Assembly (NCBI GenBank): GCA_010093815.1
Contig: ML996582.1
Length of the DNA: 64,000 bases
Reading direction: 5' to 3' (one strand)
Source of the DNA: Pseudovirgaria hyperparasitica
Taxonomy: Eukaryota
In this document: positions 1 through 33,105 of the stretch, piece after piece
How positions within the stretch are numbered: the stretch's first letter is position 1
Layout of the letters: every line of letters begins with the position of its first letter
Made by a program: the position numbers and the translations under genes
The notes under the pieces: generated by a model
What the model was told of the DNA's origin: nothing
Databases searched by the model: none
The model's input: the letters and a program-made list of their open reading frames with translations, nothing else

Positions 1-209
1 AACGGTCTCTCTATGTATTTAGTTCTCTCTCTATCTAGTCTTTACTTTAAGAATTATACTATATTCTTATTATCTTTAAGCTATACTCCGCCGATCCGTT
101 TATTATATAATAGTCTATTACGGCTAGATCCTATTATATAACTCTATTTAGATATATATTCCTTATATAAGGAATATTATATATCTATTTATACCTGCCC
201 TTTTCATAG

Positions 210-691
210 TATAAGTAGTATAAGGGATAGTATAACACGTAGAAGAGGGGCCTATAATATAATAGGTAGCCTTAGATAATAATCTAAGGCTAAGGTAGGT
301 ACCTATAGGGAGAGCTAATTATAGATACTTAGAATAGGTATTCTAAGTAGCGTACTAGATAATTAGAAATAGAATATTAGTATTCTAAGTAATATACTAA
401 ATACTTAGAATAAGTATTCTAATTAGCGGACCTTAGTAGAACTATATAGACCCTTTAGACCCGATCTCTAGAGATAGTTCTATAGTAATGAATTTAAACT
501 TATACTAATATAATTACTACTTTACTCGCCTACTAGCTAGTTACTATTTATACTCTATTAATACTTACTATAAACCTACTTATAATTCTCTAAGCCTTCT
601 AAGTATCTTTATCTTTAGGAAAGCCGGGATACTCTATATAATAGACTACTTTAGGAATAAGTCGTATCCTTAGTAGAAAAGGTTTATTATA
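210..691 (+). repeat. LTR of family C (482 bp)
   Basis: Colinear near-identical copy at 32624-33105; RIP'd TG...CA termini. Confidence 0.88.
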
Positions 692-822: not shown

Positions 823-1424
823 TATTAGGCACGTGCCTGCCAGTTAATTATACATGTATATAGTAGTCGTATATAAGTAGTATACTCTACCCTTGAAGCA
901 GTAGCTTTAAGATTCGGTCCTTTTAGTATAGTTGCTTAGTACGTGGAGCCCGCCTCCTTATATAATCTTAAAGCTACTACGGGGTCACGGGTTTAACTCT
1001 TGGTCTAGTTAACCGTTATTAAATTTCGTATGATTCCGTTTAGCTTACCACGTTACGTGTACTTTATATACGTAATAGATAATATAGTAGTAAAGTTACT
1101 ATAGTAAGTTAGCGTGTCTAGTACTAGAGGCAGCATTACGAATATTAATTCTATATATATAGTTTATACTAGGCCTAGTATGGCTAGCGCGTATACTAGG
1201 CCTATTATAGCTAGTTTAGTTTATCTTTCGTAAGGTAGATGCCTATAATACGTAAGGGCACGCGCCTTTGAAAAGGGGAGATATTATTAGGCACGTGCCT
1301 ACTAGTTAATTATATATATGTATAGTAGTCGTATATAAGTAGTGTGCTCCACCCTTAAAGTAGTAGCTTTAAGATTCGGTCCTTTTGGTATAGTTGGCTA
1401 GTGCGTAGAGCCCGCCTTCTTATA
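823..1424 (+). mobile_element. TRIM copy 1 (140-bp LTR, 322-bp non-coding internal region, 140-bp LTR)
   Basis: Direct repeats at 823-962 and 1285-1424. PPT AAAAGGGGAG lies just before the 3' LTR. TSD GATAC at 818-822 and 1425-1429. Confidence 0.93.
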
Positions 1425-1785
1425 GATACCTTATTATAGAATTAGGGGAATAAGTTACGGAGCTCTAAAGGAAAAATATTAAACTTAGAAAAGCTAAAGA
1501 GGGCTTTAAAAGAAAAATCCTAGAATCTTTTAAAGATAAGCGAAGCGAACTCTAAGGATTTCTAATATAGATTAGAATATATCTCTAGATCTATTAAATT
1601 TAGAACCCGGAAGAATAAGTTATATTTACTACTAGACTACTAAAGGGAGACGTACTTACTTAGTTTAAACCCTACTTAAGGGACTTTATAGAAAACGATC
1701 CATAGAATTAATAGAATAATACTACTAAGATCTTTAAATATTTTAAAGAATTTAAGAAATATATTAAAACGACCTTTAGAGATAT

Positions 1786-4700
1786 TGTAAAGAGTAAAGA
1801 CGTAGAATAGTAGTCTAACAGTTCATAGAGAGACATAGAAATGTATTTATAGAGTAATCTCACTATTATACGAGGTTGATTCCTAACGAGTAGGAATCGG
1901 TTTATACGGTCTACTTATATAGTAACCTCGCTTAACTTAGCTAACTTAACACAGCTCTAGCCACTACGTGGCTATATAGATTAGAATAGTCTATATAGGT
2001 CCGTCGTGGTTCCCGTCCTAATAATATCCTTCTTCTTTTTATACTTTGCCCCGAAGCACTTAAGTATATATAATCCTAAGTCTCTATAATCTATCGTGTA
2101 TCTATATATCCGTAACTAAGTTCCTATAACGTTATAACCATCCTTAATATAGGTGAACTCGAGATTCTAGTTTACTTTTATTAGTTTATATACGCGCTTA
2201 TCCCTTGCTTCGTGGCTACTACCTAGGATATATAATTACTACTTTGGTCGAGTATATATTTAGCTTCGCTCGCCTTTGATTTTATTCTCTAGTATATCTA
2301 CCTCGCTCTTAAGGTAAGTCGTTAATTCATATACTATCTTCCCTAGTTTAGGTTTAGAAGGGTCTATAGTAGTCCATTCTTATTAGAACCGGTCCTATAT
2401 AACCTATTCGCGTTATTACGGTTACTAATTTAGCTTCATTAATCGCCGTTAAGGGTGGACGAATATTCCTTCCTTAGATCTCTAGCTAACGTGTATATAT
2501 AGATATCTAATACTAGTCCTATCTCTAAGCCTGCCTCCTCCTCTCGCAAGACTCGCTCTAAAGGTATTACCTTCTCCCCGGCCACGCCGGCTAAGAAGTC
2601 TACCTATTACGGTAGTATAAAGGCGCACTCTAAGTCGGAGAAGAGAGTAGCTAGGGCTGCTACTACTACTATCTCTACTACTAATGTGGCTACTAGTCGC
2701 TCTAGGTCCTTTTAGGACCTTAACATTCGCTCTAAACCCCAGCCTACTAATAATAAGGCCTAGGTCGCTAAGGATACTAAACGTAGTCGTGGTTTACGCC
2801 ATAGGAAAACGGCGAACTACGGTTTAATATACTATAAGTATATTAAGGGCTATGCGGCCGGCTCTAAATATCTCTTTCGCTCTAACTCTAGTATTAGCTA
2901 CTACTCTACTAACCGCGACGGGCCTATACGCCCTATCTTTACTCTACCTACCCGCTACCGCCGCTATACCGTAACTAGTAAGACTTATCTATAGGTAAGT
3001 ATAATAGGCTATCTTAATCTAGTATAATCTAAAGTAGTCCGCGCTAATATATTCTTAGATTCCTATGCGTATATAAGATATATATAACGACCTTCGCGTC
3101 CGCGAGACCCTCGGGGGTCCTTATAGCCGCCTACCTACTATATAGAGAGAGTTTAGAGAGCGCTATAAGCTCTTCCTAGAGGTTATTAAAGTATAAGTTA
3201 CGAGCACGTTAATTATTTTTAACACCTATTAATTTTTCTAGCCGCCGCGAGATCCCTAGTACCTAGGCTATCTATTCTAGAGAGTCTATTCTAGCTATAG
3301 AGGCCGTAGAGAGGATTCGCTCTATCCCCCCCTGTCCGTCTCGCGCTACTAATAGATCTTATAAGAGGTCTACTATTTCTCCCTCTAAGTCGCCTCGTAA
3401 GAGGGTATATATTCCCTTCTAGATTATTCTAGATCATATTAGCTAACTTTAGACCTAGTCACTACACTCCAGCGCTTAAGGCTCTTCCCTCTAGACTCTA
3501 ACGGATCAGGTTATTACTCTAGAGGCTAAGGTCGTCGTCCTCCGCCGCTATATCGTGCGGTTAGAGAGAACTATACTAGAGGTTAGGACGGATAATAAGA
3601 TAGAGGAGTAGCTCTATGGTTCTAGCTCTATGTGTTCTAGATCTACTATAGGTGGTGCGCGCCGGCTCTGTTTACCTAGCTTTTATCCGTTTTAGTCCTT
3701 TTTAGACTATTTAGATACCCGTCGGCTAGTTTCTAGTAATTTAATTCTTAACTTAACGATATTATATATGCGCTCGCTTAGCTTATAACTATCGGTTTCT
3801 ATATTCTAATTTTCCTTAAGTTACCTAAGTATGGGTACCATATATAAATTAGTTTATCTCTAGAAATTCTATTAGAGTACCTAAACTAGTAGCCTAGTAG
3901 TTATTAGTTCGGGTACTCTAACCTTTTATATTTCGTGTTAAGAGTTTAATTCTATAGTAGGGTACCTTTTTTTAGGTTCTTAGTCCTATATTTTTCTCAT
4001 ATATAATAGTCCATATTAGTCCATTCTAGACTCTTCTATATTATTCTATTATAGTATGTCGCGTTACGTTCCTAAAATGGTTATTTACGCTTTCTTCGCG
4101 TCTAGTAACCGTGCGACGCTTGAATTATAGAGCTACTATATAGAGTTTTCCTAGTGCGCGTCTAGATTTCCTAGTTTAGTACTTCGTTCTCTACGGTATC
4201 CTTCTTCTTTTTATAACGACCGCGACGTCGCTATACTTATATTAATAATATACTATTCTACATCTTTTACTTATACACAGCCATTATAGAACTTAAGATA
4301 TATACCACTAGTTCCTAGGTGTTCTCATTCTTAGTATAGTCCTTCTAACGGATTCTATATTTCTAAACACCGTCTTTATCGATCCTATATTCGATAATAT
4401 AGTCTACTTTAAACACGTCTAGTCTATCTTAGGGTATAATAGAGTATAACTACACGTTCGTGCGGCCATATACGTTAGGTTAAAATCTTTTAAGTAGTAA
4501 GACGTGGAACACGTTATAGATTCTTATATCGCTTCCTAAGTTAAGCTCATAGACTCTTATACCGATATAACGTTTAATTCGGAAGGGACTAGCCATTTTA
4601 TAATTAAGCTTCTTATTTACTCGCGACGTTTATATATTATAGACATTAAGAAGGACCTTATCGTTCTCCTCGTACGTCTAATCCTTAGCTAATCTATTAT

Positions 4701-7700
4701 AGTACTTCGTATACGAGTCGTTTACTTATTAGATTATAGCGTAATAGTTACGTACGGTTTCGAAGATTTTAATTACTAATTTCTAAGCGTGGACGTTCAC
4801 GTCTATTATTCGATTAAATTAGACCGTCTAAGGCTTAAAACCTATCCTTAGACTACGTCCGAGGTTCGCCTAGAAAGGTATAATATCTATTATACTATAA
4901 CGACTATTATTATATACGAACTCTACTATGCTTAGTAGGGAGGCCTAGTCGTTCTACTCGAAATTATAGAATACGCGTAGGTAGGCCTTAAGCGTCTAGT
5001 TCTATCGCTCTATCTAGCTATCCGTCTAAGGATGAAATGCTATAGACATGTTTCTATTTATACTTACCATTTTATAGAATAACGTCTAGAATTTGGACGT
5101 AAAGGTACTTTCTCGGTCCGTAACGATCCTTTTTAGTATACCATGGACCTTAATAATCTCGTTCTAGAACACCTACGCTAGTTCTTTAGATATAATCATC
5201 TTCTATACTAGGATATATCTAGACATCTTTATAAGTCTATCCACGATAATAAGAATAGAATTATAACTTATTCTAAGCATCTCGCTTAGAGATAAGTTAA
5301 CTATAAAGTCTATAGTAACATCTTCCTATATAAAGAGGGGGGCTAAAAGAGGCTATAAATTTCTATATAGCTTATGCCTAGGGGCCTTTATTCTTTAATA
5401 AATTAGATAAGTAGCTATCTATTCTTCGACGTACTTAGGTATATCTTTCTAAAAATAGTACTAACGAATTAAGCTTAGGGTACGTATATACCTAAAGTGT
5501 CCTACTAGGTTAGCGTTATAGTATCAGCTAACTACGTTAAATCGCGCGTTATCTATTAGTATATAGTACTTTCTATCGTAGTAAAGTAAGCCGTCCACGA
5601 AGGTCTACTTATAGTCTACTTTAGTCCGTAATAACCTATCTTACTATATTTTATATAACTTTAAAACTATCGGGTCTATCTTCTATAGATCTATAATTAA
5701 CTAGGCGAGGTTAATTAGATATTTACGCCGGGTATTATCGCCCTTCCTAATAGCGCTAATAAACGGCCTACTAGGGACTTCGGTACCGCGTCTTTAGTTA
5801 CCGGCTTTAGTCTTAGAGATTTAATTACCGGTATCGACGTTAGTATCTCGCTAATCATCTAATAACTTAAAATCTAACCTCGTCCTTAAGAGTTAGGCCT
5901 ATAGCTACTCTAGAACTCTATAGCTACTATAATTCTAGGCGCCTTCTTTATAGTTAGGTCTTCTTAACATTCTATTAGCTAGGTTTATACTTCTAGGTTA
6001 ATAGTAGATTATAAAGTGAAAGTTCGTAAGCTACTTAGTCTATTAGATCTATTAATGGTTTAAAACCGTTATACTTATAAACCCCTTTAAGTTATAGTAA
6101 TTAGTTAGTAACTCGACGTTATACATGGCACCTTTAAGATAATATCGCCACTATTTAAACGACTCTACTATTACTAGTAGCTCTTAGTTATAGATAGTAT
6201 ATCTAGTCTTAATATCGACTATTTTACGTAAGAAGAACGTAACTAGATGCCATTAGACCTTTTTAGACTTAGTTAGTCTAGGCTAGAAGAGAATACCTAA
6301 GATTATAAATTCTAACGCATCGGTTTTAACGTAGATAGGTTTAGTCGGGTCGAAGTACACTAGTAATAGGGCAGTTATAAATGCCTCTTTGATTTTCTTA
6401 AAGGAGGCCCTTTCGCCTTCCGATAATTCTATAGGCTACGATTTAATATTATACTATTTCTATCTACCGCGGACCGTAATAGATGAATCTATAGTAGTAG
6501 TACGCGCGTTAAGCGGTGCTACTAGCCGGGAGAAATACTTAATGAATTTTTAGTAGTAATTAGTAAATCTAATAAAGACACGTATATCTCGAACCGATTT
6601 TGGTTTAGGCTAGTCCATAATAGTAGCGACCCTATCCCTTTCTATAGTTATACCTTAATTAGTAATAACGAAGCTAAGGAAGTTAATATGGTCCTAGTGG
6701 AACTCGCATTTGGATAGCTTAATATATAGCTTATATTTTTCTAGCCTATCTAGGACTACGCGTACGTGCTAGATATGTTCTTCTTCGTTATTAGAGAAGA
6801 TAAGGATATTATTAAGGTATACGATGCACGTCGTGTCGAGTAGGCCTACTAGCGCGTTATTAATATACGCTTAGAAGGTTCCTAGCGCGTTAGTTAGTCT
6901 AAAAGGGACTACTATATACTCGAAGTATCTATAACGGGTTCTAAACGCCGTTTTCTACTTATCGCCCTTCTTAATACGTAGGCGGTAGTAGGCGTCGTGT
7001 AGATCGAGCTTAGTAAAGATCTTCACGCGCCCTAGTCTATTAATAGACTCGGAGATAAGAGATAGTAGGTAACGATTCTTTCGTATAATATTATTTAGGC
7101 TATAGTAGTCGATATATAGACGGAGACTTCTATCCTTCTTCTTTATAAAGAGGATTAGAGCTCCGGCTAGGGATATACTAGGCCTAATCTATTCTCGCGT
7201 AAGGTTCTTTTCGATATATTCTTAGAGGACCTATAGCTCGGGTTCTAATAGAGGGTAGATAGGTCCGTGTAGGGGTTATTAACTATCTTTAAGGTTAATA
7301 GTAAGGTCAGTAGGTTAGTATTAAGGTAATTCGGACGAGTCGATCGCTAACGCGATATATTAGTATATTTTATACTAATGTAGTAGGTTTTCGTCTACTT
7401 TAATACTAAGCTCTCTATTTTAAGTAAGTAAGAGGACGTAGATAGCGGAGATTACCTTTTTATAGTCCTTCTGGAATTATTTATCGTTAACTAGCTATAC
7501 TAGGTTCTATTATAGTAGGTACATGCGCTAGCCAGCTGTTTTCTAGATGAAGTCTAGTTTCGGGTTATATTTTTCGAGCTATAGTATACTAAGAATTATA
7601 TTAAAGGGACTATCTACCACGATAAAGGTTAAGTAGTAGGGTTTCCACTTCCTCCCGCTATCCTAGATGCCGTATTTAATAGTATAGGTACCCTACGATT

Positions 7701-9599
7701 TAATAGGACCGTTAATACTATAGAAGGTAGCATCTATTAGTACTTAAATGTCGACGTTAAGTTCTCGTGCTTATTAAGTCGATATAACGTTAGTAGCTAA
7801 ACCGCTATTAAGTATTATAGTCTAATGTTATCCACGAGGGACCTTAATAGGCCTAGCCTATAGTTTAATATACTAGTTAGCTAGTTATCCCTCTATTTTA
7901 GTTACGCCTATAAGTCGCGAGGGTTCCTTATAGATAGTTAGTTTTTTATATCGTGTACCGGGTAGTTAGGCGCGATATATTCTAGCTACTAGCACTTATA
8001 GTATATAACTAACTTAGTATCTATATTAGTATTTAGTAGTTTCCCTAAGCGGCACTCGGGTACTATATAGCCTATCCTACCATAGGTATAGTAGGTGACT
8101 TTAGGTCGTTTATACGAGTCGTTTCTCGCGTCTTAATATATTAACTAGTAGAAAGATCCGCGGTACGGGCCTCGTCTTCTCGAGTTCGTAGAGTGGTAGC
8201 GCCTACGAGGTGTTCCGCGCGATCTATTACTAAACTAGTCCTCTTTAGATAATTTTATATCGGATTAGATTAATAGGGATAGTCGTGCGCCTATACGATA
8301 TTAGTTATTTATTATATACTAATATCGTTCTACGAGATTCGCGAGTACCTAAAGATTAGTAGGGATAGACGTTATAAGGTCGATGCGTTCCTTTATACTT
8401 GGGTTAAGGGACCTTTTAAAGTTATTATATTATTAAACTATGCGATCTTCCTCGGCTTCTCTCTAAAGAGGTTAGAGATATTTAAGGAGTTATAACGGGG
8501 ATTATCTCTCTCGCTATTAAGTCTTAAAGATATAGCTCTAAGTCTATTTATATCGCTCGGCTCTATCGCCGAAGTATTAAAGAAGGAATTCAGTGAACGT
8601 GTCCTAGTTATACGTATCCTTAGGGTATTTAATTCGATGTGCCATCCAACGTTTAGATGGCGTTAGATCTAGGTAGTTCTATATGAACCTAATCTTATTA
8701 CTATCGTTCGTGAATAGGTAGAAGAATTAGCTATACTAGTAAGCCTATTTATAAAAGCTCCTCCTGGTTTTACCGTTAAAGTAAGGTAGTTTCTTAGGCT
8801 AAGGTAACTAGGATAGTAATAGACTTAGTTAGATTATTTCGGCTTAAGTTAGTCTATATTAGTGTAGATTAGTTACTACTAGTACTAAAGCGCGTAGTAC
8901 GGCTTTGAGTCTAGCGGTTTATCCTTATACTTCGTCGAGTTCGCGAAGTTACTACTCGAGCTAAGCCTAACGCTATCTCTCCGCGTGTAGCTTAGTATAT
9001 ACATCGTTATAAGGCGTGGTTAACGTTAGTTAATTCTAACGAATTAATTCGTTAACGTTAATAGGGTCTAGTCTTATAGTAAGGATAGGTCTAGTATAGT
9101 ATAAACTAGACCGCAATAGAGTATAATAGACTCCTTTCTTATTATCTAGGTAATCTTCCACGGTTATACGGAATGCCGTACTAGTTATTAGTACGATAGT
9201 CTATAGGGTATATTTATCGGTGGAGGTGGTCGTAGGGAGACTATTCTCTTCGTTTAGATTTAGAGAGAGTCTCTTATATAAGGTAGTGCCACGGGTATTA
9301 TAGCGCGTAGTAGGAGCTATCTCTATAAGCTACCGTCGTGCTATATAGAGAGGAATTAAAATATAAAGAGTAAAGACGTAGGATAGTAGTCTAATAGTTC
9401 ATAGAGAGATATAGAAATATATTTATAGAGTAATCTTACTCTTATACGAGGTTGATTCCTAACGAGTAGGAATCGGTTTATACGGTCTACTTATATAGTA
9501 ACCTCGCTTAACTTAGCTAACTTAACATAGCTCTGGCCACTACGTGGCTGCATAGATTAGAATAGTCTATATAGGTCCGTCGTGGTTCCCGTCCTAATA
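1786..9599 (-). mobile_element. Full-length RIP'd Ty3/Gypsy chromovirus, family A (7.8 kb)
   Basis: 238-bp LTRs at 1786-2023 and 9362-9599; TSD GATAT at 1781-1785 and 9600-9604; PPT complement after 2023. Minus-strand de-RIP motifs: CCHC ~7960-8010, RT VYLDD ~6808-6822, KLSKCEFH, integrase DVTMDF/IVDRLTK/IVTDRGS ~5100-5330, chromodomain RWKDYTKNENTWEP ~4310-4355. Confidence 0.95.
2503..3611 (+). pseudogene. Antisense intron-containing cargo gene inside element A; Zn-cluster-like Cys motif plus C-terminal coiled coil
   Basis: Predicted exons 2503-2994, 3059-3192, 3242-3404, 3453-~3611. Introns: GTAAGT..GCTAAT..TAG (2995-3058); ATAAGT (read as RIP'd donor)..TAG (3193-3241); GTATAT..GCTAAC..TAG (3405-3452). 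The spliced frame is continuous and all internal stops are RIP-revertible TAG/TAA. The 3' end is uncertain. Confidence 0.72.
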
Positions 9600-11759
9600 G
9601 ATATAGATAAATAAAGAATAGCTAAGAGATAAATCTAGTAAATAGTCTAGATAAAATCTACGTCTAACTACGCCTCTAAATTCTAATAAATCTCTAGTTA
9701 GCTAGGATAGAATAATAAACCCCTAATTCTCTAGTTCTATACTAGATTATATAACGATATTAAGGATAAAATCTCCAGAGAGAGAGACTATTCTACTAAC
9801 CTCTAAGAGTATATTAAGCTTATAGTCTAGATTAATAACTAACTATATAAGAGATACTATAAGAAAAGAGGGAAAAAGATCTTTTAACCCGTACTTAAAC
9901 GAGATACTTAGAAGGGTTATATTAATAAAGCCCTAAACTATCTATATAAGGGATTCTATAATAGACCTATACTAATAGAACTTAGTACCTTATAGATAAA
10001 ATATCTATCTAGTAAAGAAAGGGAGTAACTAAAGAAGAAAGGCAAGTATCTCTACTATAAAGAAAAGGGATACTACGCCCGCGAATACCCGAAAAACAAA
10101 ATTAAGAAAAACTAGATTAAGAACCTAGTATTAAGATAAGGAAACTTCGCTATAGAAAAGGAAGAAGTACCTTATATAGCTATATTATAGACTAGTTATA
10201 CTAACGACCTCTACTTTATATATAAGTTAGAAAAAGATAGTATAGATTAGTATCTAAAGAAAAGAAACGTTTTAATAGCTAGTAAATAACCCCTATTACT
10301 TTATAAAAAAATAGAACTATAGAAATACTTAGATATAATAAGAAGATCTAAAGTAACTAAAGAAACGGTATCTAAAGAAGTAATAATTAAAGAAAGTACT
10401 ACTAAGGAAGATAGTAAGGGAGAAACCCTTACTATAGAAGAACTATATAATAAGTTAATAATAGACTAAGACCCTACTACTTACTATATTATCTACTATT
10501 ATAGAAAATATAGAGGTAAGGATAATAGAGACCTATCTTTAAGAGAGGTAGAGATTTAACCGGAAGATAATTAACTTATCTTACTCTACCACGAGAAACA
10601 TAATAAGACCTCTTAGATTATCTATCTCTATAATAACTATCTTTACTATCTTTATAAGAAGTAAACCTAGGAATAGTTTCTATAATAGTATTAGAATTAA
10701 ATAATTCTAAAAGTCTTTAGAGATAAAGATATATAATAGTATAAAATAATTACTAAGGAAGCTAATAAAAATTACTTTATATTAAAACGGGTAGAAAATA
10801 AGGATTATCTAGAGAACTAATATACCTAATATCCGGACGTTACGTGCCGAACTCACCTAATATCTAAGGCTATTATATAGTATAACCTTTAAGTAGACTT
10901 AGATAAAATTAAGAAATAGGTTTAATCTATAATCTAACTTATATAGAAAATAGAATAGAAACTTAGTAAGCTACAAAAAAACTAGGAGGGCCGGATATAC
11001 TAAGAGAAACGGCCGAGCTAAAAAGAAACTCTCTTATATCTATTAGTAGCTTAGACGATAAAATATAAATATGTAAGAATAGGGTTATTGGATAGTAGTG
11101 TAGTTAGATAGAATAATAGGGTGTATTCTATTATAGAACGAATTACTACCGAACTCTTTCGGTAGAAATCCAAGAGTATATATATAAAGGGACGCCGATC
11201 TATCTAGTACGTAACTATTTACCGCCCTTCACGTTACCTCCTAACTCTATTAGCTAAGGTATATATAGGTCGGGTTCTACCTAAGGCTAAGTCCTAATAA
11301 TTATCCCTTCCCTCTAGGAAGCTACCCTTAGCGACCTAGATTATTATCTATCCCTATATCCCTATCCTAAGTCTCGTAAGACCTTAGTCGTTCTCTACGC
11401 TTTATCTTAGATACTTACCGATATTCGCCGATCTAAGATTTATATAAGCATTTTCCTAATAAACTAGATTTTATCTATCTTAACTTCTTATATAGGTGAG
11501 ATTACCTAATTAGGCCTAGCGTATCACGTAATGTGATTAGGTAAGCCCGGGTACTACCTATATTAAAATCTTTTCTTAGAAATATTCCTTTCTTTAAAAA
11601 ACTTCTTAACTCTTTATAGAGTTTTTTAGATTATTAGGTATATCACCCGATCCTTATAGATATAGATTTATATAGATTTACTATAATTTAGTACGATTTA
11701 CGTAATTTACTAATTTTCGTACCGTCCTTAGCTAGTAATAATATAATTCGTAATAATCT

Positions 11760-12765
11760 ATATAAATTAATAATAATTATAATATGGTTTCCTAAAATCT
11801 TAACGCTCTAAAGTAATTAGTACGGAAATAGACGCCTTTAAATAATCCCTATCTTATATACGTTACTAATATATTAAAAGCTATCGATCTACCCTAACCT
11901 AGGCCGGGCTCTAATAATCTAGCTATATATTATTATGGTTATCGCTTTCTATCGTACATTACTTACGGCGGTACTAAATCTATAATATATAGTACTTATA
12001 TAACTAAGAAGCGTTATTACTTATAGGTATTTAAGTAAGTTCGAAGAACTTTACGTAGATTTACTTATATTAGTATAGATTACTACTAGGCCTCTAGTAA
12101 CCCCTACTAATAAGGAGTATAGTACTACCGATCGTAACACCTTAGAGAAGGCTTTCTATAAGCTATATATCTAAGGTAAGGGTTACGCCTAGGAGTATAA
12201 TTCTAATAAGATCCGTAAGGATTTATCAGAATCTACTATAGCTATTATTACCGCGATTACTAGGTAATATTATTTTTCTTAAATTATTATAGATTCTTAC
12301 TAATATATATTAATCTCTATAATAGTACTAAAATCTCTACTACTTCGGACTTCTTTCTATATACCGGCGATATTAAAATTTCTAGAAAAGGTTCTAGTAA
12401 AAAGGCTAAGGTTCCTTCCTCGCGCATGCTAAAGAGCTATAAATTTAGGGAAGATAGCTCTAATCTAGAAGTTTCTATACTAAAGGTATATGGTTCTATA
12501 CCGATTATTAAATCTTTTCGCTAATTTATATAATTCTTAGCGTACCCGCGCCGGTCCGTCCCTCTCCGTCCTAGGTCCCGCCGCTCTATAGGTTTCTATA
12601 GAGGAGTTTATAGCTATAAGGCGCGCTATATAGAATTTATAGCGTCGGAATAAAAGGCTAGAGACTTATATTATAAAGCTTAATACTATACTAAATAAGA
12701 ACTAGTAGAAGGAATTAGATATAACTATCGCGGTAATTAGTACTTCTACTTCTACTCCGACTTAA
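11760..12765 (+). pseudogene. Antisense intron-containing cargo gene inside element B unit 1; same architecture as the gene in element A
   Basis: Predicted exons ~11760-12026, 12079-12263, 12326-12485, 12541-12765. GT-AG introns at 12027-12078, 12264-12325 (ACTAAT branch) and 12486-12540 (GCTAAT branch). Exon 3 has no stop codon even without de-RIP. Confidence 0.75.
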
Positions 12766-12802
12766 TCGGTTTAGATCTATACTAATTAGTACTAATATAT
12801 CT

Positions 12803-13627
12803 NNNNNNNNNNNNNNNNNNNNNNNNNNNNNNNNNNNNNNNNNNNNNNNNNNNNNNNNNNNNNNNNNNNNNNNNNNNNNNNNNNNNNNNNNNNNNNNNNN
12901 NNNNNNNNNNNNNNNNNNNNNNNNNNNNNNNNNNNNNNNNNNNNNNNNNNNNNNNNNNNNNNNNNNNNNNNNNNNNNNNNNNNNNNNNNNNNNNNNNNNN
13001 NNNNNNNNNNNNNNNNNNNNNNNNNNNNNNNNNNNNNNNNNNNNNNNNNNNNNNNNNNNNNNNNNNNNNNNNNNNNNNNNNNNNNNNNNNNNNNNNNNNN
13101 NNNNNNNNNNNNNNNNNNNNNNNNNNNNNNNNNNNNNNNNNNNNNNNNNNNNNNNNNNNNNNNNNNNNNNNNNNNNNNNNNNNNNNNNNNNNNNNNNNNN
13201 NNNNNNNNNNNNNNNNNNNNNNNNNNNNNNNNNNNNNNNNNNNNNNNNNNNNNNNNNNNNNNNNNNNNNNNNNNNNNNNNNNNNNNNNNNNNNNNNNNNN
13301 NNNNNNNNNNNNNNNNNNNNNNNNNNNNNNNNNNNNNNNNNNNNNNNNNNNNNNNNNNNNNNNNNNNNNNNNNNNNNNNNNNNNNNNNNNNNNNNNNNNN
13401 NNNNNNNNNNNNNNNNNNNNNNNNNNNNNNNNNNNNNNNNNNNNNNNNNNNNNNNNNNNNNNNNNNNNNNNNNNNNNNNNNNNNNNNNNNNNNNNNNNNN
13501 NNNNNNNNNNNNNNNNNNNNNNNNNNNNNNNNNNNNNNNNNNNNNNNNNNNNNNNNNNNNNNNNNNNNNNNNNNNNNNNNNNNNNNNNNNNNNNNNNNNN
13601 NNNNNNNNNNNNNNNNNNNNNNNNNNN
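12803..13627. other. Assembly gap (N run)
   Basis: Run of n; further gaps at 14874-14883 and 27957-28221. Confidence 1.
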
Positions 13628-16600
13628 ACACGAGTAATCTTATATAGACCTATTATTATATAGTTAAGCTTCTTCTTTAGCCTAATACTATAAATATTCT
13701 TACTATTTAGTAAAACTTTATCTCTAATATTAAAGATCATGGGTTTTCTACCCTTGTTATAGTGCGATTTACTATAATTCATAGTATCTTATAGTAACTT
13801 TATAATGCTTCTTTACGTTTAGAATAGTTCTATAGTAATTTCTATTACTTTAACGTTAGGTTATTCTACTTTAAACTAAGTCCCTAAGAACTATATATTA
13901 TGGTTCTAACCGAAGTTTACTTCGAACGGACTTACGTAGGTTAACGTATATTAGCTGTTATTATACGCGAATTCCGCGATATAGACTAACCTTACCTAGT
14001 TATTCTACTTATAGTTATAATATACGCGTAAATAGGCCTCGACTATCTAATTCTACTACTCCGTCTATCTATCTATTTATAGATAGAACGTAGTACTAAG
14101 TTTCCGCTTAATTTCTAGCGTATAGTAGAAATCCTTCTAAAATTTAGATGTTATCTACGGACCTCTATCCGAAACTATACCATTTAGTATACTATAGAGC
14201 CGGACTACGTTACGGAGTAGTATATCTATAAGATCTAGTACTTAGATCGTCTTCCTTATAGGGATATAGTATAATATCTTTATAAATCTATCTAGAACTA
14301 CGAGTAAACTATTATAAATATACCTAGAATACTTACTTAGGGGTAGATCTATAATGAAATCCATTAATAATTCCTTCTATGCCTCCTTTAGCATAGGTAA
14401 TGGCCTTAATTTACTATATAGTAAGTGTCTATATACTTTCGTATACTAGTAAACGTTATACGTTTTTATATAGTCTTTTATATATTTATAAAGACCCGGC
14501 TAGTTATACGTTCTTTGAATTAAATCGACCGTTCTTATAACGCCGAAGTACCCTACTAACGTATAATTATACTATTCCCTTAAAATATTAATTCGTAAGC
14601 CGCCTTCCGGCACGTAGAGTCGGTCTTAGAAGTAGATCGCGTCCGATCGTCGTTTCTATCTTAATAACTACGGCGGATCTATAGCGCTTCCTTTTATACT
14701 TATAACTTTCTTTACTAATATATCGGAATTCTAGGTAGATTTAATTAAGTCTTCGAGGGTTTTCTTAGTTTCTTAGATGTTTATTTAGATTACTTAATAC
14801 CCGCTCTAATTCCCGCGGAGAATCGCCGAAAGTATCCTAGCTTCTAGCATTCTATTAGATAACTAGTCTTATANNNNNNNNNNGTTTATTTAGATTACTT
14901 AATACCCGCTCTAATTCCCGCGGAGAATCGCCGAAAGTATCCTAGCTTCTAGCATTCTATTAGATAACTAGTCTTATAGTATCTAAAGTATAGTATAGTC
15001 TAACTTACACTAACTATCTACGTTATTCTATAACGATTTCTTATAATCTTTACGCCGCGATAGAGGATTAGCTTTATTCTCTCTTCTAGCTTTATATAAG
15101 ATTTTAAAGTTAAATATTAATATCTACTTAGCCTAACGTACTTATCGGTAATTAAGGACCTTAGTTAATATAAAGTAATATAGATTTACGTAATCCGATA
15201 ATAATTCGATCTAATATATAGAGCCTTCTAAATAATATTACTATTACTTAAAACTCTTAATAATTATAAGTAGTTTCTAGTCGTGTATATTATAACGTAT
15301 CTCTATATCCGCCATTTTATAGGAAAAGAAAGCGACCGGGTACTATTACACCTTATCTTTCGTATCTTTATATAGTTAACTAATAATTCTAGTAATTACG
15401 AATTCTAACGCGTTAGTTTCGATCTAAATATACTTCTTAGAATTAAAATATCTAAGAATCGGCGTGGTTATAAAGTAATTCTTTAATAATTAGAACGTAT
15501 CTTACGCTTCCGGCGTTAACTATATCTCGACCGACTTAGCTTTACGCTATACTCGCCTATCTATAGGGATTTTACCGCCATTCTCTATAAGTTTATTAAG
15601 CGGCGCCGTAATTCGTAAGAAGTCTATAATGAATTTCTAATAATAGTTTATAAAATCTATAAATATTCTAATTTAACGTATAGTAGTAGGTTCTAGCCAT
15701 TCTATGATGGTCTTTACACGCTCTAGCTCCATTTTTAGGCCGCTATATATTATAATAAAGCCGAGAAACCCAACTTCTTATTAGTGAAACTTATATTTAG
15801 ATAATTTTACGTAGAGTTTATACTACCTTAGATGATTTAGTACCGATTTCACGTGTTCTTTATAATTCTATATACTATTAGAGTAAATTAGTATATTATT
15901 AAGATAAACTACGTAAATCACGTTAAGTAATCCTACGAGTATAGTGTTAATATATCCTTAGAACGCTCCTAGCGTATTTATTAGCCCGAATGGTATAATA
16001 GTATACTTAAACTAACCATATCTAGTCTAAAATGCGGTTTTCTACTTATCTCCGCGACGAATTTAAAGCCGGTAATATATATCTCGTAAATCTAGCTTTA
16101 TAAAGTACTTTACCTTCGTTAATTAGTCTAAAGATTTACTAACTAGCGGTAATAGATAACGATTCTTCTTAGTTACCGTATTTAGTACCTAATAGTTAAC
16201 GCATAGACGTAAACTTCTGTCTTTCTTCTTTATAAAGAGAATAGATACGCCGGCTAATAACGTACTATAATATATCTAGCCTCTTTCGAGGTATTCTTTA
16301 ATATATTTATAAAGAACTTCGAGTTCTAGTCTTAAAAGTAGATAAAGTAGGCTATAAGGGACGTCTACTCCCTCTTCGAGCTTAATCTTTAGCTTATACG
16401 GCCCGTGATTAGGGAGAAGTAACGTATCTCCTACTAAAAATATATCTATATACGGCGAATATACGTCGGATAGCGTGTCTTCGCCCTAATTATTACTATC
16501 GTCCTTATCTTTATCGATAATTAATAAGGACGTAAGATAGATTAGCGATAATTGGGTCCGTATAGCGAGGTTCTATATCTCCTTACTAATAGTTACGACT

Positions 16601-16746
16601 TACTAGTATAATTTACCACGGTATTATTAGAACGTTAATATCTTCTTCTAAAAATCAAGGATAGGGTTTAGGCGTCTAAGCTAAGGTATCCCTAGAATCA
16701 TATTCTATTAGCTAATATTAGCTACGATAAATTTATTAGATATCTA

Positions 16747-19700
16747 GAAAAAAACTTCTCACACTCTAACGGACCAAACTGGTTAATTCGGGGTAATATA
16801 GCGATCTATATATATTAAACGATAGAGTATACCGAGTATAACAACCTCCAATACATGCACGTACGTGTAGTATATAATACGTAACGATACCGACGTATAG
16901 AGACGCCATATATATACACTCGAAGGCTCTTCGACGATACGAGTATAGACTATCTCTAATAAATACCAACACGCCGACCCCCTTTTTATTAGTTACGGGT
17001 AGCCCTTTACTAATAATTATGGCGGCCCTAGGCACCGACGTACCTCGGCTTCCACCGGGTATACCCCTAATACTAGTACGGTAGAAATAGCTATATAGTA
17101 GCATATCCTAGGACGATTAAACCCCCGTCTAATAAACGACGAATAACTAAGGGCGTATAACGCTATAGATAATAGAGACGGAGGGGACCCCGCCCGGGGA
17201 GACCCTCCTAGATAAGATTAACTACTAGGTAGTACGTGTAGAGGGGGAAGTCGAGAAGGGAGAAACGGCCCTCCTTAGTATCTTCCGGAACCTTATCTAG
17301 AATATTAGGGAGCTTACTATAGGAGTAAAATAGGCGCCGGAACTAGACCCGGAATCTAGACTAGATCGTATAGAGGCTAGCCTATAGAGAATCTAGGAGG
17401 GCCTTACCTAGGGAAAACGCCCTAGCACGTGGGCATAGGTCGCCGCACCTATAAGCGGAATAGCTATATTAGCTAAAATACTAAGGGCACCCACGGACGG
17501 GGTATATAGTATATAAGTCGCTATCTAGGATAAAGAAGTACTCGTATAAGTCTAGTAAGCGTCCCTAAAGGATATTATAAATAAGATTAACGAATAGAAA
17601 GGGATATAGTTAAATATAGTAGCCGCTAAACTTACCCTAGAAGGTATAGTACTAACTACTACTACTAATATAGTCTAGTAGACTATCTCGCGCGACCCGA
17701 ACACGATTAATGATATCTTCCCTAGCGCGTCCGTCCGCGTAACCACGTACCTAATATAGGTATATACCGTCCCCGTCTAAGGACACGTTATTAGAGAAGA
17801 CGATATCGAGCGAATAGAGTAATCTAACGAACCGAAGTACCCCGGGATTAAGATCGCGAAGACGTGGTAGAAGAACGTCTAAGGGATTAAGATAAAATCG
17901 AAAAAGCACTCTACTATAATAGTGGAGCTTAGGGACCCCGCTCTCGCCTATAGAATAATGTAGAAGGGCTTCCTAGCTAAAGGAGAGCTACTTACGGCGG
18001 AACCATGGGATAGGGCATAGGTAATAACGTAATACTTTAACTATTAAGGATATAGGTATACTAGGTAGAGGTGCTCTTAGAAGACCGTCTATGGGTGGTG
18101 TAAATAGAGCCATAATACTAAGGAATACCCTTATAAGACGCAGAGCGACGAGACGCGAGATAGGGACACCGCTAAGTACTCTAACTACGACGGGAAACAC
18201 CTATCCTAGTCGGTAACGTGCACAAAACATAAGTAGATCGTAGAATATATTAACGCAATAAAGATAAGAGGGGCAAGGTAGATATACCAAGCCATAAGGC
18301 CCTCGCTACCCTCACCGCCATCCCTAACTTTACTTATAAATCTAGTAACCACCCCCCGAAGGGGAGAGGATAACGCGTAATAGTATACTATATAGAGAAA
18401 GATAGGCCGACCCCGGGGTATACTTAAAGCCGCTACCGCGCGAGGATAATTACGCCTTAGCGCTACTAATATATAGACTCGAACTTTCCCTAGCACCTAA
18501 TAAGGGTATAAGATATACTTATTATTATATAGGCGAACGTATAATATAAACGAGAAAACTAAGTGACGCTCCTAGAAGAGATAGGAGCCGTAATAATAGC
18601 TATCTAGGAACTATATAAATACTACTAAACTAATAAGCTAATAACACACCTAGGATACTATACTATCCACCCTACGGGCCCGGATAGGAGAGTTATGTTT
18701 TATATACATAAGTCGATCCCGCTCTTAGAATGGTCTTATACCGAACGTAATGACCTCCGGATAACACTACATCTCTAGATAAGTATAGGGCCTCTCTATA
18801 TCTATAATATCTATAATTAATAGTGATCGCTTACGCTAGACGATATACTCGAGGGCACCATAACGCCGGGATAACATATTCTTCTAGGCGACTTTAATCT
18901 CTACCATAGGTAGTAGGGAGGCCTAGCCGTCGCGAGAGAAGAACTTAGAGTAAGAGAACTATATACACGGTACCACGACTTTCTATACCTCCTTATACCC
19001 GTGGGGTAGATTACCTAGAGAAAATATAAATAGGACGAGGACGGGTCTACGCTCGACCTTACCCTCGCCACTAAGTATATTAGCTATAGAGTATAGTACT
19101 ACCGCCCGAGCCGGATATAGACGGACTCCGACCACGAATGCATGGAAACCGTAATAGACGTCTCCACTCTTAACGAATAACATGGGAAATAGCTATAGAA
19201 GGATACTAATTAGGATAAATACCTAGAGGACCTGGAATCGGCGATTCTAGACCCCTCTATAGTCGACATATCTAACGGCCTAGCCATAGATAAGGCCGTG
19301 TAAGTCCTCCTTTAAGTATACTAAGCCATAAGAGATAAACATGTGCTATACCGAACGTATAGACCCCTAGAAGCGAGGGGTATACCTTAAATGCGAGAGT
19401 ATAGAAGAGACGCCCGTAGACTATATATATATATATACTATATTCGGACGACTAAGGCGTGGGAAGAGTAGAAGAAAGTAGTACGATATCGTAATAGGGC
19501 CCTCCGTAATAAACGACGAAAATAATAGCGCACGATTACTAATAAATACACACAGTAAGCCGTAGGGCTATAGCGCATGGTAAAGTAGGCTAAGGGTATA
19601 GACGCGCCGATACCGCCGCTACTAATGCCTCCCCTAATATACTAAGAGAGGATATACTCTATAAGCCCGGAGAAGACGGAGATCTTACGTAAAGTTATGT

Positions 19701-21988
19701 TCCCCCTCCCGGAGCTAGTAGACCTATTAGATATTAATAATACTAAATACCTAGATGTAATCGATATCCCCTAAGAGGTTACTAAGGAGGATATACTCGA
19801 CGCTGTTAAAGTACTCCCGAATAATAAGGTACCCGGACCGGATAGGATACTAAATAGATACCTTAAATGTACTATACTAGCTACCCTACCGCTTATTAGT
19901 TATATATTTTAAGTATATATTAAGAACGGATACCACCCCTAAAGCTTCCGGGCCGTCTATATTATTATACTCCCGAAACTAGGGAAGAACCCTAGCTCCC
20001 CGAAAGGATGGAGGCTAATCGCCCTTCTCTTCTATCTTAGAAAGATACTAGAGGCTACGATCGTAAAGAAGATAAGCGCCGTAGTATAGAAATATAACCT
20101 TCTCCTAGTAAACTAGAAGGCGAAGGCTAGAAGCTCCCTAATTACCGCTATCTAATATATCCTTAAAGTCGTCTAGACCGTATAGAAGTAGGGACGTGTA
20201 GTAACGCTACTCTCCCTCGACATGGCCGGCGTATTCGATAAAGTAAACCATACGAGACTTATCTATAACTTATGGAAGAGGCGTATACCCGCGTAGATTA
20301 CGCGGTTTATATAGTCCTTCCTCGCCGAAAGAGTTACCTAGATATATATCCCCGGATATCGAAGTAAGTATAAGAAGACGGCTTACGGCATCCTATAAGG
20401 AAGTACCATCTCCCCGATTCTCTTCCTCTTCTTTACTATAGACCTTCTCTAGGGAATATAATATATAGAGGTAGTAGGATACGTAGACGATATATACCTT
20501 CTAGCCATCGATAATAATACTAGCTAAACATATAGACGACTCGAATAAGACCACGGGAGATACGTCTAATAGGCAAAGCGCCACGGAGTAAAGTTCGCCC
20601 CTGAAAAGTACTAACTTATATACTTTATTAATCGCCGTGGGAAATGGGCTACTAGGGAAGGCGAGCGACGCCCTAGAATAGACGCCTTCGACGAACTACC
20701 GATATAAAGTATACGCGTACTCGGCGTCATGATCGATAATAAGCTTAAATGGGGACCATAGGTAGCATACGCCGTTTCTAGGGCCCTCTAGGTAGAAGCC
20801 GCTATACGCCGGATTACGGCCTCTACGTAGAGAACCGCCCGGGATAAGGCACGCTAACTATATGTCTCTATGGCACGACCAGCCTTTATATATGGATACG
20901 AGTACTAGTATACGGCCCTTATATAGGCTAGGCGAACGAAGCTCGAATCTATATAAAACCGCATACTCCGTCTTATCTCTAGTATATATAAAGCTACTAC
21001 TATAGTACTACTACGACGCGAGATAAATATAATAAGTATATAGGACTTCTACTAGATATAGAGGGTGGTATACTTTACTAAATAATAAGCATAGGAACGT
21101 ATAGAAAATATAGAATATACCTTCGCCGCGCTGCGCGCGCGAGTTAGTATATACTACTAAGTACTCTTATATATAGGCCGGACTTAACTACGGTATAAGT
21201 GCCCGATAGAAATAGACTCGAACTAAGTAGTATAAGAGATTAAGGATAACCTAGATACCCTCCTAGACTAATAGAGCCTTCGAGAGCTCGGATAAAGTAT
21301 ACGGTCGTGGATCTAAGATAAGTAGAAAGAGACACTCCGGGCCTAGTGGGCCTCCTAGTAGAATAGATACCTAGAGTAGATCCGAGGACCATGGAAGGAG
21401 CCGAGTAAATGGATATATAAAGGGCTTATAAAGGCCTAGGTATCTATACTCCTCTAAGCCCGAACGGGCGCTATAGAACTTCTATACTACCTCTATAAGA
21501 GAGGCGTCCCCGACGTGTCTCTATGGTATAAGGCGTATGGCCGGAGAGGTATAATACGCTACTATCTTATAATGTGCCCCGATCTTTATACGTAAAGGTA
21601 GAAGCTTATCTATACGATAAGAACCTCTAATATCGTACGATGGCTTAATGAGTACCCTAAGGATATCGCCCGGTAGATGATTATACACCTACTACTCCTC
21701 TAATTCTAGTAGACCCGGAAATATATGCCGGAAGAACCCCTTAACTAATAACCCCCGTACCTACACGTGCTGTCTAAGGGTAAAATAACGGTAATATAGG
21801 CTGTAGGCTAATAGGTGTACCCTATAGCTGTATACTTAAGAAGAAACAAAGGTTTAATGAGATGTAATTATCGACATAAGGAAGTTTTCCCCTCTTGGGT
21901 TTCTTCTTATATAGTAGCTTAGACTAGAGAAGGCATAGGCCTGTAGAGTACTACTCTACCTAGTTATATAATATTATTATTATTATTA
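16747..21988 (+). mobile_element. Apparently full-length RIP'd Tad1-like LINE (5.2 kb) inserted in the protease region of B unit 1
   Basis: TSD TTATTAGATATCTA at 16733-16746 and 21989-22002; empty site in B unit 2 at ~29640-29655; (ATT)n 3' tail. ORF1 has CCHC knuckles (CFNCQGYGH...C, ~18030-18130). ORF2 has an APE endonuclease (AIQE, LLGDFN), RT motifs (WRPIALLSCLGK, LSLDMAGVFDKVNH, GIPQGS, GYVDD ~20477-20491) and a C-terminal CCHC. Confidence 0.93.
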
Positions 21989-24354
21989 TTATTAGATATC
22001 TACTATTTTATTATCTTCGAGTTATAAACTTCGTAATTTATTATAGCTTTACCTAAAGTTCTAACTTCATATCTATTAACTATAATAGTTCGGCTAACTT
22101 TACTAAGATCATATAATAATCTATACTCCTTTACAAGAATCGACGAAATATAGTTATCTTCTATACTAGTATCCACGAGGGCCTATATAGTTTTATTACC
22201 ATTTACTATAGATAACGATACTTTTAGTAATATTAGGTCTTTACTCGCCGGAAGGCGCTATAGCTCCTCCTAAGTATATATAATTTAGCTAAGAACGCGG
22301 TTAGATCTCGTGTACTAGCCTATTCTTTTTTCGGATTCTTATAGTTAGACGAAATATATTCTATTTCTCTATACTTATAGTAATGAAGTGCGCTATAATC
22401 CTACTATTTTATAATAGACATTATATTTAAGTCTATGCCTTATCCTTTTCCGTGTTAAGAAGTACCGCCTAGATTATTTTAGTGTCCTCTTAACGCGTTT
22501 CTACCCCGATTTACGCTCTTCTAGCGCTAATCGCGGTAAGGTTACTCTTAATTAAACGTATTCGATCGACCTCGTTTCTAACCCGTATAGGATTCGTTGG
22601 TTTTACCTAGAGAGCCGCGTTCCTTAAGGATGCGGTAGTATTTATTAGCTTTCTCCTCTAATTTATATAGATAGTTAAAACTTAATAATACTATTTCTAG
22701 TCTTTCACGGATTAACGGAAGTAGTACTTCACAAAACTAGAATATACAAATATTTTCCTATAGCATAGGGATATTATCCTATAGGTTTTAGAGGTATTAT
22801 AGTAGTTAAGTAGGTGTCTAGTTCGGTCGTTATACTACGCTTCTTAACTTAGATAGTACCTTTCTTTTACGTTCTCTATCCGTTCTAAGGGTGTTTAGTA
22901 TAAATATAGCTAAATATTCCTAGGTTATCATAGATAGTAACTATACTTCCTTCTATCTATCCTATTAATCGTAGGATTATAAGTCTAGGTATTATTCTCC
23001 GAACGAAATGCGTTATACTTTAGTAGAAAAGAGTAGAGGGTTATCGAGGAAGTACTTTTCGTAGTCTCTCTTCTAGTCTTTCTACTCCTTTTAGTTCTTC
23101 TCTATAAATATAGTCGGGTCTTTAGATTTTAGTATATCTAGGGAAGAAGTAGAGTAAATTAGTAACGAAGCGGCCGGGTATACGGTAGATTATTATAACT
23201 CTAATAGTAGGTAAACTAATTCCGCCTGAATTAGTATAGGAAGTCGTCCACCTACTATCGTTCGGCGTAGTTCTTTAAGAGACTCCTTAAGTTCTTATCT
23301 CTTTGCGAGGAGTTTCGCGCGTTCTATCTATTCTTTAAGGGTTTAAATCTCTCGAGCCTAATTCGCGACGTATTCCTAAAGTTCGGCGATAGTTTATTAT
23401 AATACCTCGCGTGACTCCGCCACGACTCGTTATCCGGCTTTATATTATTAGAAGTTACTTAGTATATCTACTATTTCTTCGTCTAAAAGCTCCGTGATTT
23501 AGTCTACTATTTCTACTTCTCGGTTAGAAACGGCCGGGATTAATACTAATTATAGAGGATCCCTATTATTTAATATAGTATTACTTATCCCTATAGTAGA
23601 TCGTGTCGACCTTCTCGGTTCTAGTTAGACTATCTTAACTATAGTACTATATAGGGAGTAATTCGAATATAAGAATAGGGTTATTAGATAGTAGTATAGT
23701 TAGATAGAATAATAGGGTATATTCTATTATAGAACGAATTACTACCGAACCCTTTTAGTAGGAATCTAAGAGTATATATATAAAGAGACGCCGATCTATC
23801 TAGCACGTAACTATTTACCGCCCTTTATATTACCTTCTAACTCTATTAGCTAAGGTACGTGTAGATTAGGTTCTATCTAAGGCTAAGTTCTAATAATTAT
23901 CTCTCCCTCTAGGAAGCTACCCTTAGTAACCTAGATCGTTATCTATCTCTATATCCCTATTCTAAGTCTCGTAAGACCTTAGTCGTTCTCTACGCTTCGT
24001 CTTAGATACTTACTAATATTTACTAATCTAAGATTTATATAAGTGTTTTTCTAATAAACTAGATTTTATCTATCTTAACTTCTTATATAGATGAGATTGC
24101 CTAATTAGGCCTAGCGTATCACGTGATATAATTAGATAAGCCTAGGTGCTACCTATATTAAAATCTTTTCTTAGAAATATTCCTTTCTTTAAAAAACTTC
24201 TTAACTCTTTATAGAGTTTTTTAGATTATTATATATATTACCCGATCCTTATAGATATAGATTTATATAGATTTACTATAATTTAGTACGATTTACGTAA
24301 TTTACTAATTTTCGTGCTGTCCTTAGCTAGTAATAATATAATTCGTAATAATCT

Positions 24355-32623: not shown

Positions 32624-33105
32624 TATAAGTAGTATAAGGGATAGTATAATACGTAGAAGAGGGGCCTATAATATAATAGGTAGCCTTAGATAATAATCTA
32701 AGGCTAAGGTAGGCATCTATAGGGAGAGCTAATTATAGGTACTTAGAATAGGTATTCTAAGTAGTCTACTAGATAATTAGAAATAGAATATTAGTATTCT
32801 AAGTAACGTACTAAATACTTAGAATAAGTATTCTAATTAGCGGACCTTAGTAGAACTATATAGACCCTTTAGACCTAATCTCTAGAGATAGTTCTATAGT
32901 AATTAATTTAAACTTATACTAATATAATTACTACTTTACTCGCCTACTAGCTAGTTACTATTTATACTCTATTAATACTTACTATAAACCTACTTATACT
33001 CCTCTAAGCCTTCTAAGTACCTTTACCTTTAGAAAAGCTAGGATACTCTATATAATAGACTACTTTAGAGATAAGCCGTATCCTTAGTAGAAAAGGTTTA
33101 TTATA
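32624..33105 (+). repeat. Family C LTR, probably solo or recombinant
   Basis: Copy of 210-691. No PPT upstream, no family C internal sequence downstream, and the 5-bp flanks differ (TCTAG versus ATAGA). Confidence 0.8.

Follow-up and report, generated by a model that had tools for sequence, protein, structure and literature searches.

Does the region at 11760-12765 of the 64,000-nt stretch of Pseudovirgaria hyperparasitica DNA analyzed here (contig ML996582.1; hereafter, the window) contain the remains of a gene encoded opposite to the gag-pol of the Gypsy element in which it lies? An earlier note on this DNA, made from the letters alone, had drawn a four-exon gene in this element family (family B), had seen the same architecture in another Gypsy family (family A) and had regarded it as an undescribed system. 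We lean toward the view that a spliced antisense accessory gene once lay at the B locus and survives there as dead remains; it would add a new member to a kind that is already known.

The first 37 kb of the window are AT-rich and carry a RIP signature (TA/AT 1.5-2.0; (CA+TG)/(AC+GT) 0.05-0.3). In the remainder the GC content is ~0.5 and the RIP indices are normal; compared with this GC-rich part, CA and TG are ~7 times rarer in the AT-rich part and TA is 4 times more common. The landmarks of the two families are given below, with the method by which they were found in parentheses where one applies.

1788-2027, minus strand: family A 3′ LTR (self-blastn and repeat comparison)
~7146-4250, minus strand: family A pol (Pfam scans with X at stops)
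9364-9604: family A 5′ LTR (self-comparison)
11071-11299, minus strand: family B 3′ LTR, unit 1 (self-blastn and repeat families)
11300-11320, minus strand: putative polypurine tract of the sense strand of the element, adjoining the family B 3′ LTR on its inner side (from the sequence; the plus strand is pyrimidine-rich, attatcccttccctctagg)
13630-14643, minus strand: unit 1 equivalent of the family B integrase, then an N gap at 12803-13627
23667-23895 and 31319-31547: further family B LTR copies (self-blastn)
26450-27760, minus strand: family B integrase, unit 2, with an SH3 domain and a C-terminal chromodomain-like tail

Both families qualify as Ty3/Gypsy elements, which are defined by the order reverse transcriptase, RNase H, integrase along a single strand between direct LTRs. 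Pfam matches were RVT_1 (1.7e-21), RT_RNaseH_2 and the integrase domain SH3_Tf2-1 in family A, and RVT_1 (7.7e-16), Integrase_H2C2 (3.2e-08) and SH3_Tf2-1 (2.7e-08) in family B, the last two above cut-off. Family B forms a tandem LTR-internal-LTR-internal-LTR array with pol on the minus strand; its pol ends at 26450 in unit 2, equivalent to ~13250 in unit 1. A match of family A to Pfam Chromo lay under the cut-off (E = 0.013; 15.8 bits against 25.1), and family B had no such match; the tail of B aligns to that of A, and its protein relatives carry PF00385. The pol proteins of A and B are 35-47% identical. The region from pol to the 3′ LTR, here called the spacer, is unusually long in both families, ~1.9 kb in B and ~2.2 kb in A, against 0.18-1.2 kb in the eight metagenomic relatives with a detectable 3′ LTR.

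Other repeats were found in the same part of the window. Unit 1 of family B is split by a 5.2-kb LINE-type non-LTR retrotransposon (16746-21991, plus strand), which matches Exo_endo_phos_2 (1.5e-05) and RVT_1 (2.1e-16). A third Gypsy reverse transcriptase, more distant and with 33% identity to that of A, lies at 33138-34064 on the minus strand, and a 485-nt piece beside it is duplicated at the start of the window (207-691 = 32621-33105). A repeat of 603 nt, itself containing 138-nt sub-repeats at a spacing of 462 nt, is present at 25282-25884, 825-1425 (reversed) and 34338-34940. The two B copies (11600-12802 and 24195-25300) differ at many places by an entire dinucleotide, one having CG where the other has TA, which implies that CpG was hit on both strands, besides CpA.

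The gene model of family B, its second copy and the counterpart in family A comprise the following features.

11638-11731, plus strand: candidate 5′-UTR intron; GT and AG present, donor not kept in the second B copy (B2)
11784-12026, plus strand: modeled exon 1; 81 codons, five in-frame TAA/TAG, Y-rich, ending L-TAG and then GT
12027-12078, plus strand: modeled intron 1; 52 nt, phase 0, GTATTT..TAG, without a CTRAY branch motif
12079-12263, plus strand: modeled exon 2
12264-12325, plus strand: modeled intron 2; 62 nt, phase 2, TACTAAT branch motif
12326-12485, plus strand: modeled exon 3; no stops, within an 86-codon open run (12264-12521)
12486-12540, plus strand: modeled intron 3; 55 nt, phase 0, GTATAT..GCTAAT..TTAG
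12541-12765, plus strand: modeled exon 4; heptad-like, charged, six TAG/TAA including the terminal one
24379-25967, plus strand: second copy of the gene model, in unit 2; ~93% identical to the first, with an insertion at 25282-25884
2503-3695, plus strand: family A counterpart; blocks 2503-2994, 3059-3207, 3260-3404 and 3453-3695
2995-3058, 3208-3259 (weak) and 3405-3452, plus strand: modeled introns of family A

The modeled B gene (11784-12765, plus strand) lies within the element, with the LTR edge at 11299 on one side and the end of pol on the other, and so has the position of an antisense accessory ORF, from the pol stop to the polypurine tract and 3′ LTR. All four exons drawn in the earlier note are present in the DNA, with an ATG at 11784, and its intron phases of 0, 2 and 0 were borne out, all three introns being GT..AG. 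Intron 2 is the sole frame-consistent GT..AG candidate in its zone; frame 11601 continues unspliced past exon 3 and is about as open as spliced exon 4. The last exon reads IAIRRAI*NL*RRNKRLETYIIKLN. The spliced model of 270 codons contains 12 in-frame stops, or 13 with the terminal TAA, and all copies of the gene in the window are dead. The second copy was located by offsets at the place claimed for it, 24355-25967, but it is interrupted. One copy of the 603-nt repeat is inserted into its last modeled exon.

In family A, introns 1 (GTAAGT...GCTAAT...TAG) and 3 (GTATAT...GCTAAC) are convincing, and exon 2 begins with ATT (Ile) in both families, as had been reported (12079 in B, 3059 in A). The phases 0, 2, 0 described as common to both families hold for B, but in A the phase 2 of the second intron requires a weak donor (GTTAAT at 3208) and an acceptor at 3259, without a branch motif. 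Upstream of A block 1, the stretch at 2308-2507 showed moderate periodicity in another frame (S ~0.3); a further 5′ exon of the A gene may lie there.

RIP ends in TA, and the codon phase of TA dinucleotides therefore records the places of former CA, TG and CG in the ancestral codons. When TA dinucleotides were counted by the codon position of their T (positions 1/2/3), the distribution was 33/40/77 in the pooled B exons (chi-square p = 1.4e-5) and 33/28/92 in the pooled A exons (p = 1.6e-11). It was uniform in the modeled introns (B, 12/12/14; A, 10/11/11) and in the flanks (35/21/34 and 29/34/35). By exon, the counts were 7/6/24 in B exon 2 (position-3 share, 0.65) and 2/5/16 in B exon 3 (0.70), and the share reached 0.67 in A exon 1 and 0.70 in A exon 3. 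B exon 4 (7/14/18) and A exons 2 and 4 were weak, with shares of 0.45-0.50, and B exon 1, which holds the key motif of the earlier note, had no codon-phase signal (17/15/19).

Decoy frames picked for fewest stops had a position-3 share of 0.39 +/- 0.06, with a maximum of 0.55 (n = 118), and the share was 0.39 in the true pol frames. The harshest null took the best of three frames in sliding windows across RIP'd DNA outside the spacers: a share of at least 0.70 was reached by 0.2% of 1,967 windows, of at least 0.65 by 0.31% of 1,955, and of at least 0.67 by none of 1,829. The excess of position 3 over position 2 is no by-product of stop avoidance. Sliding periodicity in B switched from f0 to f1, back to f0 and again to f1 near 12020, 12245 and 12440-12530, which are the modeled introns, and in A it ran f1>f2>f0>f0, with the changes at the modeled introns. 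Inside pol, high periodicity marked the true pol frame (A, 5671-5731 and 6541; B, 13651 and 26701-26791). Tandem repeats were rejected as a source of the periodicity, the largest measuring only 24-37 nt.

Codon-phase structure is thus present in blocks, with frame changes at the modeled introns, and it supports a real coding relic, beyond chance, in B exons 2 and 3 and in A exons 1 and 3. As a point of method, RIP-made TA, read by codon phase, brought out exon-like blocks and frame shifts in DNA about which neither stop counts nor ORF length nor codon scores gave information.

Whether the relics of A and B are one gene was approached through the exon 1 motif and through homology. B exon 1 had been read, with RIP undone, as a cysteine finger (P-C-L-x-C ... 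C-S-T-C-x6-C-L-Q). As it stands, it reads P-Y-L-I-Y ... Y-S-T-Y-x6-Y-L-stop, and in copy B2 His (CAC) takes the place of one of these Tyr residues, Arg (CGA) that of stop codon 4 and Ser (TCG) that of one Leu. Since the B copies differ mostly by CG versus TA, TA may derive from CA, TG or CG, and Cys is only one possible reading of each Tyr. With Tyr in the DNA, one His in B2 and no phase signal in the exon, the finger reading is not supported. Nor is a zinc-finger or Zn2Cys6-type DNA-binding domain, for which there was no Pfam match at E up to 10. The spacing C-x2-C-x6-C fits only the second half of the Zn2Cys6 pattern; on our reading, the first half is absent from B exon 1. The zinc-binding reading and the function of the B product are speculative.

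The motif [YC]x2[YC]x6[YC]L* was found only at 2956-2994, 11988-12026 and 24583-24621 among 73,996 codon positions, with 0.63 occurrences expected. At least 5 of 13 identities were seen in 22 of 7,686 pairs of GT-flanked 13-mers from the plus strands of A and B, and in 10-38 in the control pairings. By this donor-flanked control, an intron 1 placed directly after C-L-Q, which had been taken as a conserved position, is at chance level.

The spacers of A and B lack nucleotide similarity by blastn, in agreement with the earlier note. Homology of the A and B proteins, which it had also proposed, did not emerge from the overall alignment: the local BLOSUM score of the two products was 43, against 40.8 +/- 6.5 in shuffles (p = 0.35), with exon-wise p values of 0.75, 0.14, 0.44 and 0.018. 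A RIP-aware codon score gave p = 0.48, 0.10, 0.09 and 0.010 for the four colinear exon pairs (Fisher combination, ~0.01) and 0.26-0.95 for six mismatched pairs. These values are suggestive of A-B homology, carried mainly by the last exon. Comparison of the spacers by tblastx gave only inconsistent colinear chains (E 0.06-0.26) in all strand pairings. A RIP-aware Smith-Waterman comparison of the whole B product with all RIP'd frames was poorly calibrated, the A region ranking 8th of 222, and was set aside. The proposal of an antisense gene at the same place in A and B therefore stands as regards the phase-structured blocks, the frame changes at the drawn introns and the favored plus strand, but not as regards homology.

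Searches for homologues gave the following results. No Pfam family, TRP28 included, matched any exon translation. A profile of the two B exon 1 copies, searched against 1.84 billion representative proteins, had one match, a bacterial repeat protein (P0001) that was judged spurious. Word-based protein searches with A exon 1 found nothing, and a protein atlas searched with 2764-2991 returned no usable match. The best tblastn hit of the exons in 79 related metagenomic Gypsy loci had E = 2.3, and three Gypsy loci of a viral collection, which are distant and have little DNA downstream of pol, contained no homologue. The protein negatives are weak for a fast-evolving accessory gene, because even the B integrase, searched as a control, had a closest relative only 32% identical. 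The idea of an old gene inherited vertically in a chromovirus clade is not supported, with no homologue in these 79 and three loci or among the 1.84 billion proteins.

Antisense ORFs downstream of pol in the metagenomic relatives (48 ORFs from 29 loci, shorter ones being left out) were rejected as neighboring integrases, a transposase-like ORF or low-complexity shadows. In one relative (L002), a 310-residue antisense ORF, at 5171-6100 on the minus strand of that locus, lies just downstream of pol. On visual inspection it resembles a Tc1/mariner-type transposase, and it probably represents a neighboring element unrelated to the present finding.

That A and B share one ancient antisense gene, with three introns, host-like codon usage, a metal-binding N-terminal module and a coiled-coil C-terminus, whose product was a self-encoded regulator like those of retroviral antisense genes, is a possibility that we regard as doubtful.

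It could also be that the locus never held a gene, that the spacer is the non-coding 3′ part of the genomic RNA, and that the exon-intron model over-reads TA-saturated DNA. GTA, TAG and CTAAT abound in such DNA, and a pyrimidine-rich antisense strand has few stops by composition. The total of 140 plus-strand stops matches the expectation from dinucleotide shuffles (139.1 +/- 5.2), which also reproduced the asymmetry between plus and minus. Along the best free spliced path, B had 7 stops and the control windows (n = 126) had a median of 9, and equally low-stop paths were common. The 86-codon run around exon 3 exceeded dinucleotide shuffles (55.5 +/- 12.6, P = 0.027); real pol showed no excess of open runs, and in the true A gag-pol frame stops are as dense as in non-coding frames (8.5 per 100 codons). 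Tests based on stop density and open runs have little power and do not discriminate. Within the whole RIP'd region, runs without a stop are longest (up to 113 codons) on the antisense strand of the real LINE at 16746-21991, a warning against taking open frames for genes in RIP'd DNA. A pol-trained codon model was correct about the frame of pol itself in 42 of 57 and 27 of 31 windows, and only B exon 2 was clearly best in its model frame. A host-trained, RIP-simulated model ranked the model frame first in all four B exons with stops counted and in three of four without, and had no power on pol (7 of 72). The chance level of the shared motif and donor and the failure to find homologues also fit the absence of a gene. 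Such a reading leaves unexplained the phase locking of TA in four blocks, at or under the 0.3% tail, the loss of the signal in the modeled introns and flanks, and the frame switches at those introns, and we consider it unlikely.

The phase statistic is strand-symmetric by our own derivation, so that the strand needs other evidence. Over 612 codons there were 25 in-frame stops on the plus strand against 37 in the codon-aligned minus frames (B, 13 against 23; A, 12 against 14), and frame-consistent GT..AG introns with a CTRAY branch motif were found in four of six junction zones on the plus strand and in none of six on the minus strand. The plus (antisense) strand is favored, on weaker evidence than the phase signal. 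Contigs of sequencing runs X3 and X4 overlap 11273-11627 and 12584-12731 at depths of 2-5 and carry no strand information, and none of the runs recorded as RNA was listed as containing the stretch.

A real relic might instead lie on the sense (minus) strand, as an extra ORF downstream of pol of which the plus-strand model is a shadow; the symmetry of the phase statistic under reverse complement allows this. The minus strand of the A spacer has a longest open run of 103 codons (2485-2793), which shares the frame of pol, and 3 stops in 164 codons (both with shuffle P = 0.003), and the pol-trained codon score of 2503-2994 was best in a minus frame (0.08 vs. -0.12). In B, the excess of stops in the codon-aligned minus frames, a longest minus-strand run of only 42 codons and the lack of any branch-motif intron on that strand in all six zones argue against it. 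A minus-strand gene would also place G at codon position 2 in 27-31% of codons, which is unusual, and the three minus frames of the A spacer match no Pfam family. We therefore hold a sense-strand relic to be quite improbable.

Least probable is that the blocks were acquired from a host gene by transduction, as a fragment that is a mere passenger and does not serve the element: the phase signature, which reflects former C at codon position 3 followed by A or G at position 1, is much stronger than in gag-pol (0.51-0.60 against 0.39), as from host-like codon usage, and transduction is one origin discussed for plant antisense ORFs (PMC11963269), but no host-like homologue of B exon 1 was found among the 1.84 billion proteins, nor one of A exon 1, and two families with only 35-47% identity in pol both have blocks at the same place and in the same orientation.

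If, as we prefer, the locus holds a spliced antisense accessory gene, then 11760-12765 would be a RIP-inactivated gene opposite gag-pol, flanked by the end of integrase with its chromodomain-like tail on one side and by the polypurine tract and 3′ LTR on the other, with a similar relic in family A at 2503-3695. Antisense transcription of the intact gene would have begun in the 480 nt that separate the ATG from the 3′ LTR, and the transcript would have been spliced at three short introns (52, 62 and 55 nt); for B, we infer the strand, the splicing and the start codon. The predicted product would be ~270 residues long, with an N-terminal part rich in Tyr, where Cys, His or Arg formerly stood, a middle rich in Ser, Thr and Lys, and a C-terminus of heptad-like character. 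Other antisense accessory genes of LTR elements suggest, by analogy, that it may have regulated the expression of its own element, as a nuclear, nucleic-acid-binding or dimerizing protein.

Contigs of runs X1 and X2 cover the spacer bins as they do pol, and depth there is not copy number. Run X3 contains a 2,840-nt contig (record 22; depth, 2,604) that matches part of the B LTR (11167-11261). The loose end of this contig has C or G where the window has T or A, which implies that un-RIP'd family B sequence exists under the same species label; among the differing places listed (40 of 764), none falls within 11784-12765. The un-RIP'd sequence at high depth would make the idea of a shared ancient gene directly testable. 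Genes of this kind are candidates for retrotransposon self-regulation, through transcription, silencing or chromatin targeting, and they are missed by gene callers and repeat libraries.

Among known systems, deltaretroviral antisense genes, e.g., HBZ of HTLV-1, are transcribed antisense from the 3′ end of the element and spliced. The B gene would resemble HBZ in layout only (antisense from the 3′ end, splicing, and a coiled-coil-type C-terminus of the modeled product), and a basic-zipper signature is not visible in the modeled product. Deltaretroviral antisense genes are mentioned in PMC11963269.

Plant elements, as far as the accessible parts of two articles describe them, provide a second comparison: antisense accessory ORFs lie between pol and the 3′ LTR in Grande, RIRE2, Retand (with a TRP28 domain) and PvRetro13 (PMC7264820, PMC11963269). 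Like A and B, the elements covered in these parts have a long region from pol to the 3′ LTR with antisense coding capacity, and a DNA-binding or regulatory role has been proposed for their ORFs, as it is here for the B gene. The plant regions given there are longer (2.9-6.6 kb vs. 1.9-2.2 kb), Retand is not a chromovirus by the same account, and its TRP28 domain had no Pfam match in our exon translations.

In fungi, according to articles that cite Zhao et al. (2011, Virology 417:248), Boty-like Gypsy elements of Botrytis cinerea and Sclerotinia have an additional gene, brtn, which is antisense and situated between pol and the 3′ LTR (PMC8365987, PMC7264820, PMC4227169, PMC5987419), and a Monilinia transcript is 63% identical to BRTN (PMC8365987, PMC7264820, PMC5987419). 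By these same articles, the system called undescribed in the earlier note had already been published, since Boty, a fungal Gypsy element, has an antisense gene in the interval from pol to the 3′ LTR (PMC8365987, PMC7264820, PMC5987419). In contrast to brtn, the copies in the window are dead by RIP, and the profile of B exon 1, made from RIP-damaged queries, retrieved no fungal protein from the 1.84 billion, which may or may not include BRTN. The likeness is in architecture: so far as these articles go, brtn and Boty share with B a fungal Ty3/Gypsy element, with a chromodomain or, in B, a chromodomain-like tail, and an extra gene, in B a probable one, between pol and the 3′ LTR, antisense to gag-pol. 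If the relic is real, fungal Gypsy antisense accessory genes would not be limited to Boty in the Sclerotiniaceae: two more families, in an ascomycete with active RIP, would have them, introns included.
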